NCBI GenBank assembly: GCA_050302075.1
Contig: JBNLAH010000005.1
Span: 145,183 to 209,182 of the forward strand
Length of the DNA: 64,000 bases
Direction of reading: 5' to 3'
Source of the DNA: Parachlamydiales bacterium
GTDB lineage: Bacteria; Chlamydiota; Chlamydiia; Chlamydiales; SM23-39
Positions 8,802-14,002 of the stretch are shown one piece after another (positions within the stretch are counted from its first letter, which is position 1; each line of letters opens with the position of its first letter). The position numbers and the translations under genes were made by a program. The notes beneath the pieces are model-generated. The model worked only from the letters and a program-made list of their open reading frames with translations. It did no database searches and was not told where the DNA came from.

Positions 8802-9735
8802 ATTGCAAAGAAAACACTGGAAATAGTTTATAATGGTTCATTATCTTTGTGGCCATACCCTCGTATAACCTTTCGTTATAGTATCTGGCCTCAAGGCCTG
8901 CCCCATGAATACCCCCAAAATACCAACCAAGTTCGAAGCTTGTAGTAATAACACCCGCAGCTATTTCTCCTTTGGAGAAAAAATGGGCGGCAGCCCCAAT
9001 GAATAATGCATTTATAAAAAAAGATGTAACAGCTGCTTTTTTTTGTCCTACATAAAGATAGCCAGTTCCAGGTAGCAGAGCATTAAAGCCCTTGGCTTTT
9101 GAGATTGATTTTTTATTTTGTGAATAGCTAGCTATAAGAAAAGATACATCTTTTTCGTAGTCGGTGGATTTTGATAGTTTTTCCATTTGAGGAATGTTGG
9201 CATTTAAGAAGGCTTGAGATATTTGAATTTTTTTAGCACTTTTAGGAAAGTCCCTATTCAAAAGACTAAATACTTGTTCTGCCATTTGACAGTTTCCGGT
9301 TTTTAAATAGCTAGTATGTAAAATTATCAAAAGGTCGTGGTAAGGAGGAAAAGATTTGTCAACATGAGCCAATTCCGTTTTTTCAAATAAATTGACTACA
9401 TCATCGTATCTATCACCTAGAAAATAGCAGAGTAAAATATTGTACTGTATTTCTAAAGCTCTGTCGGAGTCATCTTCTGTAAGAAGAAACTCAGCTCTTT
9501 TAAATGTTGAAACAGCTCTGTAAAGGTCCATCTCTTTAGCAAATCTAATTGCAATGATGTATTCCTTTGCCCATCCTTTTTCCCTATCAGCAGGATCAAT
9601 AGGGGAGAAAGCAGGTTTTAGCTTATTGATATAGCTTTCTTCTAGCTGGTGATTTATTTTTGGCTCTATTTTATCTGGAACTCTATAGCATCCGATAGTA
9701 AATAAAGTTAGCAAAAAAAGAGTGATTCTAGTCAT
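8791..9735 (-). CDS. Putative TPR-like lipoprotein with C-terminal membrane segment
   Basis: Lipobox LFTIGC, TPR-like helices, LLPGTGYLYVG motif followed by hydrophobic helices. Confidence 0.65.
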   Translation of the reverse strand: MTRITLFLLTLFTIGCYRVPDKIEPKINHQLEESYINKLKPAFSPIDPADREKGWAKEYIIAIRFAKEMDLYRAVSTFKRAEFLLTEDDSDRALEIQYNILLCYFLGDRYDDVVNLFEKTELAHVDKSFPPYHDLLIILHTSYLKTGNCQMAEQVFSLLNRDFPKSAKKIQISQAFLNANIPQMEKLSKSTDYEKDVSFLIASYSQNKKSISKAKGFNALLPGTGYLYVGQKKAAVTSFFINALFIGAAAHFFSKGEIAAGVITTSFELGWYFGGIHGAGLEARYYNERLYEGMATKIMNHYKLFPVFSLQYGF

Positions 9736-12700: not shown

Positions 12701-14002
12701 TTCAGTGTCAGCTGATATTAGTATTTCTTTTATTTTTTCAAAAACTTCCGAGCTTCCGGTGAATAAAATTGAATTGGTAGAGGTGATCATTTTAGAGTTT
12801 TTCAATGCATCGATCAAACTCTCGTCAGGATATTTCGAGCTGACTAGCTCTTCCGTATACTTGTCTAAAGCAGTTTTCAAACCGGCTAAGCTTAAGTTTT
12901 GTGGCTTATAGATATAAAATTTTGTAGAGCCTGCAAAGGTACCTTTGTCTGGATTGTCAATTGTAGCTAGCAGTTCTTTTATTTTTAAAATTGAGGTCGC
13001 ACTGCCTGTAAATAAGATGGAATTTGTTTCTGGAATAAATGCTAATGAATTGATTGCATCGATTAAGTCTTTTTCAGGTGTTCCGCTTTCTTTAATCGAG
13101 TCTTTGATTTTGTTTAGGGCCTTAATAAGCTCTTGTGCACTTTTAGTAACTGGCTGGTAAATGAAAATATTTTCATTTTTAATTTGTCTGCCTTTCATGG
13201 GCCCTTTGCTTTCAACGTCAATACTTGTAAAGACTTTGATTGCTTTCTCAGCAAGCCTTGGTGTTGAGACTATATAAATAGTGTTCGTAGATTCCTGAGG
13301 AACTAAAATAAAAGGGTTTCCTGCTGCGAGGGGAGCCATAAGTTGATTTGCCAAACTGATAATATAGTTTGGATGATTATAACTGGCATGATATGACTTG
13401 ATCTCGAGTGGAGTGTCAGGAGAATCTAAATTCTCAATTAACGAGTCGATTTTTTCTAGATTCGTTGTAATATCAGTTAATACAATTTGTCTTGTTTCAG
13501 GTAGAACATCTAAGATGGCGCTTTCAGAGATCATCGATCCAATTATTGCTGCTATAGACTCTACAGACGTGTTTTGTATCTTGAATACCTTGGTTAAAAT
13601 AGGGGCGCTTGAATCTATTTTTTCATTATCTTTAGATACTTGAGCTAGTTGCTTGACATTAGTAGCTTTTGTGATAATTAAATTGTTATCTTGCTCTAAG
13701 ATATGCATACCGTTAATTCTTAAGGACTGAATTAACGTGGACATTAAACTGTCTTTAGTGATTGGTTCACTAGAGGTTACAGAGATAGTATAAGGCTCTA
13801 ACTCTGCTTGATCATAGATAAAGTTCAGTGATGCTACTTTTCCAACAAATTTGACGTATTCAATCAACGATACATTCTTGTAGTCAATTGTATACCCCTG
13901 ACTTGCTTGTTTGTTCTCTTTTGCTGAAATGCTATGAGATAAAAAACATCCCAAAAGAACAAATGGAAAAAAGAATTTGGTTTTACAAAAAACCATTTTC
14001 AT
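9728..14002 (-). CDS. sctC: T3SS outer-membrane secretin CdsC/SctC with expanded N-domain array
   Basis: Signal peptide; N0/N1/N2 domains; secretin core (QVFIEVLVIE, FGLDW, EYRDIGV..EITP, GIPCLGGLPLIGAAF, IFLKPHII); downstream of pkn5 in the T3SS operon. Confidence 0.93.
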   Translation of the reverse strand: MKMVFCKTKFFFPFVLLGCFLSHSISAKENKQASQGYTIDYKNVSLIEYVKFVGKVASLNFIYDQAELEPYTISVTSSEPITKDSLMSTLIQSLRINGMHILEQDNNLIITKATNVKQLAQVSKDNEKIDSSAPILTKVFKIQNTSVESIAAIIGSMISESAILDVLPETRQIVLTDITTNLEKIDSLIENLDSPDTPLEIKSYHASYNHPNYIISLANQLMAPLAAGNPFILVPQESTNTIYIVSTPRLAEKAIKVFTSIDVESKGPMKGRQIKNENIFIYQPVTKSAQELIKALNKIKDSIKESGTPEKDLIDAINSLAFIPETNSILFTGSATSILKIKELLATIDNPDKGTFAGSTKFYIYKPQNLSLAGLKTALDKYTEELVSSKYPDESLIDALKNSKMITSTNSILFTGSSEVFEKIKEILISADTEANGDLLSHKKTFWMYKVENTSHTTLLDALKATAKDLKKADVEEKDLIETIESAKYMPDTNSLLFTGPESGIKKLKSLLESFDQKNGLLPISNQFLIYHPQNLTGDQVLESLKEMAQSFESSNLANPALLRAIESGKFIKNTQSIIFTGDSASLQKLELLLKDIDSKEISGAQQTYFIYQLKYVPKDRAEQYLKEVVQNLSKSGLKNEPIIQAIKSMKWVPESRSLMFSGPEFALEKVKSLLDSFDVPEEAQKHALSSYYLYKLQNISGAIVEEDLEKFASNLKATGLKDSDLIDTLDNAKWVKETNSILLTGYPKTLEEAKNIVAQFDVKRDMSGIGQTDFLMYKPKNIPAEIIQKSLDEIASNLKKSDLADSALLSAIKGMKYNDTTQSFIFTGTPEALKKLQALLDNIDDEASKSRIQQIGKSTFLLYKIRNSSGSQIQSSVKQITKDLKRSGTADSRFIQALDSMKYVPETNSLLFTGDPASLEKAQALVEKFDVAPIGAVECFQEGEAEFFIYKPKYLSGIELQRQLEEFGENLKMSGLCDPKLHQALNNTRWVESNKSLIVTGDKQTIDKVKSLITEIDSPSDGLSSVHEPTMSPTGSTNFLVYKLQYHKGEQIRSALRSIAKDLLESKAADKTLIETINAIQWIEVTNSLLITGSQPILTRLRELIKSLDIPLKQVFIEVLVIETSLTNTLNFGLDWLGKGKWKDKASASFNNLPPNTSTASGTFPGQFQQINATTTPVPTDIPFSSGFSLGAIGDVIFHKGQSFVSMGSLMTALQQDNETVIVTTPKVFAQDSKKSNLFIGFNIPFIGSFVQNEGANTVSTTNIEYRDIGVDMEITPVLGNSDVVTLQLKLSRQETTDQQNLIVNNVQGITTSKTSLDTTFHVPNKNFLILTGMVTQTKNRSKSGIPCLGGLPLIGAAFSLNNNLENDRNIVIFLKPHIITSLEDMQAITEQQEDFFREKAGNAALENETDEAMEMIKSYEDD
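10674..13170 (-). repeat. Ten tandem ~83-90-aa N3/NolW-like protein repeats within the secretin
   Basis: Recurring F-x-[IL]-Y-[KQH]-[PL]...L..A[IL]....[TS]NS[IL][IL]FTG....L.K...L[LI]...D unit, counted 10 times in the translation. Confidence 0.9.

Follow-up and report, generated by a model that had tools for sequence, protein, structure and literature searches.

Tandem N3-type domains in the injectisome secretin of a chlamydial clade, and a probable needle ruler whose length varies with their number

The basal bodies of type III secretion system (T3SS) injectisomes are regarded as measuring about 30-35 nm, the needle being the one part that varies in length, and the secretins of type II secretion systems (T2SS) carry one N3 domain. 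In a stretch of 64,000 nucleotides from a Parachlamydiales bacterium, here called the window (GCA_050302075.1, contig JBNLAH010000005.1, positions 145,183 to 209,182 of the forward strand), the gene sctC/cdsC encodes a T3SS outer-membrane secretin of 1424 amino acids (aa) in which a domain of the N3 type occurs ten times in tandem. How does this protein compare with described secretins? CdsC, the SctC of Chlamydia trachomatis, is reported to be 921 aa long (PMC4682100) and shares with the window's protein both its gene cluster and a T2SS-like plan of N0-N1-N2-N3-barrel. However, CdsC has one N3 and owes its length to a long hydrophilic N-terminal domain of 250 residues and to insertions (PMC4682100), whereas the window's SctC lacks an N-terminal extension (N0 starts at about aa 37-40) and has N3 ten times over. 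The N3 of the chlamydial single-N3 secretins is of the same type, with an extra helix, and matches the tenth unit of the array best.

Among more distant systems, the PilQ secretin of Thermus thermophilus has extra N domains that form stacked rings and lengthen the periplasmic channel (PMC5745081, PMC4463427); its structure is described as six rings, a barrel and a crown, 350 A long (PMC5745081). PilQ differs in having six rings, against 13 N domains here and up to 32 in homologues, and in belonging to a pilus system with a uniformly wide periplasm and no ruler; the chlamydial GspD is not lengthened. The T2SS secretins GspD, PulD and XcpQ are the best structural matches of the N-terminal model described below, and N0 is GspD-like. 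Proteobacterial SctC proteins (InvG, YscC, MxiD, EscC) have the same injectisome role and are weaker structural matches; MxiD and YscC are 566-607 aa long, and proteobacterial SctC is reported to have been recruited separately from the chlamydial secretin (PMC3459982). A literature search of partial coverage, without supplements, found no description of N3 expansion in the chlamydial secretin or of its link with SctP, the ruler reported to set needle length (PMC4682100, PMC5073101). N3 expansion goes unmentioned in the available text of PMC3459982, PMC2811131, PMC9723776, PMC3728920, PMC13170226 and a bioRxiv paper of 2026 that models the C. trachomatis injectisome. Long secretins with extra rings are already known from Thermus; the present case adds a type III context and co-variation with the ruler.

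The sctC open reading frame (ORF) contains no internal stop. Its barrel scores 111.7 bits with PF00263 (cut-off 27.5) and is preceded by N0 and KH-like N domains, as seen in both Pfam stretches and fold matches. Pfam Secretin_N (PF03958) matches ten stretches (whole-protein E 7.6e-76), and a profile derived from the units also finds ten, starting at aa 277, 360, 444, 526, 607, 690, 773, 859, 946 and 1038 with a spacing of 81-92 aa. The profile was used for counting; a BLAST self-comparison of the secretin gave the diagonal only. Units are 21-42% identical to one another and 13-29% identical to N1 and N2. The protein has 13 N domains, of which 12 are KH-like, and nine of its units are extra, the tenth being the ordinary N3. 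An earlier interpretation made from the letters of the DNA (the sequence-only reading) had described N0-N1-N2, ten repeats and a barrel in a 1424-aa secretin, with about 12 ring-building KH-like domains, and had proposed a Secretin_N count as a check; the Pfam and profile results agree with it. Its repeat motif, [TS]NS[IL][IL]FTG...D, fared less well, being exact in only four of the ten units and lying about 25 aa before the end of the unit, not at the end.

That reading had also expected N3/KH-like folds and considered an assembly artefact unlikely, and both expectations were upheld. In an AlphaFold model of aa 30-1120, made from a 38-row alignment, every unit is predicted to be beta-alpha-alpha-beta-beta-alpha, and 832 of 1091 residues have a pLDDT >= 70 (units mostly 70-90). 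The linkers between units, 7-18 aa long, are modelled with low confidence (< 50). Foldseek ranks the secretin N domains of XcpQ, PulD and GspD first (PDB 4e9j, 5ngi, 6hcg, 5wq8), and the predicted fold of the unit is that of a secretin N domain. The ESM Atlas returned Secretin_N clusters only, with scores < 0.9, which are a lead and nothing further. A complex prediction for four copies of units 7-9 scored 0.00, giving no verdict, and is counted neither for nor against the interpretation offered here. The divergence of the units, together with the same ten units in three independent homologues (79, 64 and 62% identity), rules out an assembly artefact. A single Logan contig spans positions 9000-18500 with zero differences, but may itself be the source of this DNA. 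The nearest named records to the secretin come from uncultured chlamydial genomes, at 72% identity.

The product of 9728..14002 is the injectisome secretin of a chlamydial T3SS. Its gene lies at the end of a cdsD-cdsN-cdsO-cdsP-cdsQ-pkn5 cluster, as is the case for chlamydial SctC. Upstream on the same strand, the order kinase-sctQ-sctP-sctO-sctN-three small ORFs-sctD-CesT chaperone is conserved in relatives. The neighbours are T3SS genes and not those of a type II system. Orthology to chlamydial SctC rather than GspD is further indicated by a separate GspD gene in the genome and by phylum-wide matches: an N3-plus-barrel query finds 296 of 300 scored genomes at E<=1e-30.

How widespread is the array? 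A sample of 120 sctC regions, hand-picked to cover families and lengths, was examined together with 20 paralogue regions. SctC carries 4-21 units in 81 of the 120 loci (families f1, which includes the window's genome, f7, f23 and eleven smaller ones; two proteins are incomplete) and exactly one N3 unit in the other 39. The multi-unit proteins belong to one large clade that includes Simkania, Rhabdochlamydia and their kin, and all 81 loci sampled from it are multi-unit. A quick tree likewise separates them from single-N3 SctC, except for two long branches of unsure placement (L183, L201). The 1764-aa SctC of Simkania negevensis has 14 units, Ca. Neptunochlamydia vexilliferae has 8, and two Rhabdochlamydia records have 8 and 7. 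Counts range from 7 to 29 among 233 listed homologues, the lists having been picked by similarity to long queries and so not giving the true distribution. Family f20 is presumably Chlamydiaceae. The comparison across Chlamydiae suggested by the sequence-only reading thus confirms variation in repeat number but removes the protein's exceptional status: ten units are typical of the clade, and it is the clade that the finding concerns. Across proteins, the last unit is the most conserved (55%, versus 29-31% for the first four). Units are gained in mid-array, and this is still going on, since one 21-unit protein contains a pair of units that are 96% identical.

Two further lineages have a lengthened N2-N3 junction as well, each in a different way. 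In family f15, SctC has two or six copies of N2 instead of N3 repeats (six in L200:14213-17746 and L207:14174-18094), an independent expansion; SctP there is 320 aa long with two N2 copies and 391-398 aa with six. In family f12, inserts of 1041 and 1237 aa lie between N2 and N3 (L222:1993-7284, L229:1505-7309); they are charged and proline-poor, and look coiled-coil. Other unusual secretins were encountered. In family f28, SctC reaches 2516 and 2758 aa (L216:861-8411, L223:10825-19101), with about 1770-2010 partly repetitive residues before N0 and a single N3, and one single-N3 genome has a tandem sctC pair of 955 and 956 aa (L196:2041-8776). Genes of 735 and 765 aa occupy the sctP position beside single-N3 secretins (L202:7664-9871, L221); such very long genes may correspond to long exposed needles.

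Which gene of the window encodes the ruler? The ORF between sctO and sctQ, the position expected of a ruler gene, is likely to be SctP. Its modelled C-terminal domain has the T3S4 domain of PscP (5cuk) as its best match of 48,161 chains (Z 6.2, rmsd 4.2, 82 residues aligned), and FliK (2rrl) ranks eighth in the same comparison with Z 4.6. Foldseek places the PscP T3S4 domain fourth (probability 0.98, E 0.063). These scores make a T3S4 domain likely without being decisive. Neither Pfam nor a sequence-profile search of the PDB found an SctP family, and a profile of the N-terminal part did not generalise.

If the units add length to the channel, a longer needle is needed and therefore a longer ruler is expected. 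This expectation was examined in 104 non-redundant loci with N0, array, sctO and a complete sctP, 79 of them multi-unit. In these 79, SctP length rises with unit number (rho 0.67). Independent contrasts give r 0.74 and a slope of 22 aa per unit, with 45 of 60 non-zero contrasts positive; r is 0.68 when the two 21-unit proteins are removed, and a tree of the SctN ATPase (65 loci) gives r 0.71, slope 21 and 36 of 50 positive. Within each of three families the slope is 21-29 aa per unit. Six genomes in which the genes are unlinked, outside the fit, fall roughly on the line (rho 0.81, p 0.05), with observed/predicted SctP lengths of 322/331, 340/331, 388/378, 436/401, 368/448 and 548/495 aa. In the same sets of loci, no trend with unit number is seen for SctQ, the kinase, the 211-aa ORF or the termini of the secretin itself; for SctO the contrast r is weakly negative, but the sign test is even. 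A figure of 0.2 nm per ruler residue has been obtained with helical YscP inserts in a flagellar ruler (bioRxiv 10.1101/2020.03.25.007062); at that value, 22 aa correspond to 4.4 nm per unit, of the order expected of one ring.

Outside f1, most families of the clade also encode a second secretin, a short one of 484-573 aa with the plan N0-N3-barrel (L231-L250, L138:10138-11751). It is nested among multi-unit SctC in the tree, and no secretion genes are evident among its conserved neighbours; it was not found in the window's genome or in the other f1 genomes searched. Many also carry, directly after sctP, another T3S4 gene that is short (168-238 aa, median 211, in the 35 found; e.g., L145:6744-7415, L155:6681-7376). 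Among 66 genomes searched, the gene is present in 30, every one of which also gives a second secretin match (shown by frame length to be short in 21). Of the others, 12 have the short secretin only, 23 have neither (16 of them f1, including the window's genome) and one gave no match. For the short secretin, the regression extrapolates to an SctP of 191-238 aa, which the median of the second T3S4 gene fits. This suggests a matched short set of secretin and ruler, although the figure is an extrapolation and kin are not independent.

The domain order, the modelled fold of the units, the type III context, the clade-wide variation in copy number and the co-variation with SctP length are shown by the data; what would best explain them? 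Elongation by stacked rings, arising from tandem N3 duplication and accompanied by a local widening between the membranes, is in our judgement the probable explanation. It is favoured because the units are predicted to fold as N domains with short linkers, and because of the SctP slope, the constancy of SctD and GspD (below), the known precedents and the short matched set. By analogy with solved secretins, the barrel would fix the number of chains (about 15, a fifteen-fold symmetry that we assume for this secretin), giving one ring per unit position. Between N2 and the barrel, nine extra rings would be stacked into a sleeve of about 27-40 nm (3-4.4 nm per ring) that surrounds the needle, with N0/N1 docked on an unchanged SctD/SctJ ring. 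The needle would have to cross the sleeve, and the ruler would lengthen in step. The machine would hold the membranes apart locally, perhaps by 60-75 nm here versus 34 nm in C. trachomatis, with the rest of the envelope at its ordinary width.

Several points weigh against stacked-ring elongation. The formation of rings by the extra units is drawn from solved secretins, and the pTM of the model is 0.33, so that packing between units is not predicted. The identity of the ruler derives from gene position and a moderate fold match. In the window and its two nearest relatives, SctP has 324-327 aa against 448 predicted, 121-124 below the line (-2.2 SD); these are the most negative outliers, and the needle of this lineage may barely clear a fully extended stack. 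Tests within families are weak (f1, 8/13; f23, 4/7; f7, rho 0.38, p 0.13), as is the relation between N0-N3 span and SctP in single-N3 lineages (contrasts r 0.35, p 0.094). Whole SctD length has a weak positive trend (r 0.31, p 0.064, 22/30), which is absent from the periplasmic part. Absolute lengths are uncertain because the 0.2 nm figure comes from helical inserts, unlike the chlamydial SctP segment, which is proline-rich (6-16% in nine examined), and because a fully extended chain would span 0.37 nm per residue (PMC6972891).

Could the array be a bellows of loosely linked rings, compressible or extensible, with a long stroke in the developmental cycle or on host contact? The linkers are modelled with low confidence, the basal body of C. 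trachomatis is reported to shorten by 4-5 nm on host contact (PMC4682100) and Yersinia YscC to stretch by 30-40% in situ (PMC3728920). A compressed stack would also fit the window's short SctP. By contrast, the ruler gains a steady 21-23 aa with each unit, which suggests that the length of a ring is defined when the needle is assembled. A bellows, which is partly compatible with stacked rings, is considered unlikely.

Alternatively, the whole envelope may be much wider or thicker, with the secretin merely spanning it as PilQ does in Thermus, where a periplasm of about 70 nm (PMC4463427) goes with the six-ring PilQ (PMC5745081); arthropod-associated Rhabdochlamydia are described as having a five-layered envelope (PMC9723776). 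Against this, neither the periplasmic part of SctD nor SctJ or GspD follows the array. The periplasmic part of SctD is 275 aa in the window, 272-277 aa in 42 of 42 repeat-clade loci and 272-302 aa in 32 others; SctJ frames, single-copy in the clade genomes searched, show no evident lengthening. For GspD, the T2SS secretin, the open frames in 56 repeat-clade genomes measure 714-881 aa whatever the unit number (rho 0.20, p 0.15), and those of the two genomes with 21 units measure 760 and 770 aa; this set leaves out one 562-aa frame with a partial match (G175). In the window's genome, a separate gene on a different contig encodes a GspD of 711 aa; a first tblastn result, by which the genome would have had none, was overturned when a family search found it. 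Many of the same genomes also encode the shorter N0-N3-barrel secretin. The comparison covers SctD, SctJ and GspD, and its GspD part is weakened in that a short GspD could still reach through longer partners. In C. trachomatis, the periplasm is reported to measure 28.6 nm at the T3SS pole versus 13.8 nm opposite (PMC4336559). Because of this local widening and the constancy of GspD and SctD, a widening held open by the injectisome would fit better than a wide envelope everywhere, which is judged improbable. Of the claims made by the sequence-only reading, an unexpanded periplasmic part of CdsD is therefore upheld and a longer conduit is supported by the co-variation with SctP, but no support emerges for a generally much wider periplasm, given the constant T2SS secretin and SctD.

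It is also conceivable, if decidedly improbable, that the extra units do not lengthen the channel at all, forming instead a collar, a cage, a binding scaffold or tolerated products of slippage, with SctP tracking them for another reason such as host or surface layer. The poor positional conservation of internal units, the fast change in copy number seen in the 96% identical pair and the departure of the window's lineage from the SctP trend would all suit this idea. Against it, none of the 81 clade loci sampled has fewer than four units, the correlation, which is specific to SctP, persists when phylogeny is corrected for on two trees, and two other lineages lengthen the same junction by other means. 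Finally, a ring made from one multi-unit chain (pseudo-symmetry) is ruled out by reasoning: each chain has one barrel segment, and the barrel fixes the number of chains.

The coordinates of the secretin, its domains and the surrounding cluster are collected in the table. The names cdsF and cdsG for ORFs within 19624..20950, and pkn5 for the kinase, are ones that we assume.

Table. Features of the sctC locus in the window, with the basis of each assignment.
Feature	Position	Strand	Basis
sctC/cdsC, T3SS outer-membrane secretin, 1424 aa	9728..14002	-	Pfam; gene order identical to cdsD-cdsC cluster of relatives
N0 domain, GspD-like, aa 40-109	13676..13885	-	PF21305, E 1.2e-05, 25.5 bits (just below cut-off 27); fold
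N1 domain, about aa 135-196	13415..13600	-	Secondary structure of model; purpose-built profile
N2 domain, about aa 199-263	13214..13408	-	Secondary structure of model; purpose-built profile
Array of ten N3-type units, aa 277-1112	10667..13174	-	Pfam; unit profile; model
Unit 10, canonical barrel-adjacent N3	10667..10891	-	Best match of single N3 of other chlamydial lineages
Secretin barrel core, Pfam stretch aa 1214-1381	9860..10363	-	PF00263, E 3.7e-32
Ser/Thr kinase at pkn5 position	14137..15705	-	PF00069; synteny
sctQ/cdsQ, sorting platform	15721..16779	-	PF01052
sctP/cdsP, probable needle-length ruler, 324 aa, T3S4-like domain aa 202-293	16779..17753	-	Position between sctO and sctQ; model match
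sctO/cdsO	17787..18293	-	PF16789
sctN/cdsN, ATPase	18297..19637	-	PF00006 and PF18269
Conserved 211-aa ORF; TPR chaperone-like ORF (145 aa); 82-aa ORF at needle-subunit position	19624..20950	-	Weak TPR matches only; synteny
sctD/cdsD, inner-membrane ring, periplasmic part 275 aa	21218..23047	-	Pfam; length comparison
CesT-family chaperone	23044..23505	-	PF05932

Other features of the window may be mentioned briefly. The kinase has a weak C-terminal match to a SpoIIE-like phosphatase (E 7e-4), and in several f1 loci (e.g., L117, L122, L123) it was not recovered by BLAST from the interval between sctQ and sctC. Beside the T3SS cluster, at 25012-30072 (+), is a run of seven ORFs (130-377 aa) with no convincing Pfam match; hydrophobic hairpins and coiled segments occur in several of them, which have the look of translocators or secreted proteins. 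A 953-aa protein at 5414-8275 (-) combines a C-terminal oligopeptide-binding domain (PF00496, aa 502-873) with a fused N-terminal part of 500 aa that has neither a Pfam match nor an evident signal peptide. The 867-aa ORF at 47241-49844 (+) has no Pfam match at E 0.01; a homologue appears to adjoin the short secretin in some f7 loci (cluster c17). In the ORFs at 52986-54377 (-) and 62286-63899 (+), hydrophobic segments at the N-terminus precede a weak herpes-tegument-like match (E 8e-5) or a long coiled coil, a build reminiscent of inclusion-membrane or secreted proteins.

What might the array mean for these bacteria? If the rings stack, the machines of this clade, some members of which are in culture, are two to four times longer than usual and much longer than any described so far. 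A fuller picture, which is possible but which we hold to be doubtful as a whole, would be a clade with tunable injectisomes: 4 to 29 stacked N3 rings, basal bodies of about 45 to >120 nm, each with a co-evolving ruler and each pushing the membranes apart locally. Many members would have the short secretin and short second ruler as well, so that one export core could assemble both long and short injectisomes, for example in different developmental forms, and other lineages would have lengthened the junction independently, by N2 repeats or a 1000-aa helical insert.

Environmental chlamydiae, Simkania among them, are said to have been studied by tomography by Pilhofer et al. in 2014, and the prediction made here is quantitative and could be tested by imaging alone, comparing Simkania negevensis (14 units) with Neptunochlamydia (8) and with single-N3 chlamydiae. 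If true, the clade would offer a natural series in which the basal body's length and that of the ruler evolve together. Such a series bears on two questions: does the ruler measure all of the channel, from the export gate to the tip, or just the exposed needle, and is the local width of the periplasm in chlamydiae set by the injectisome itself?

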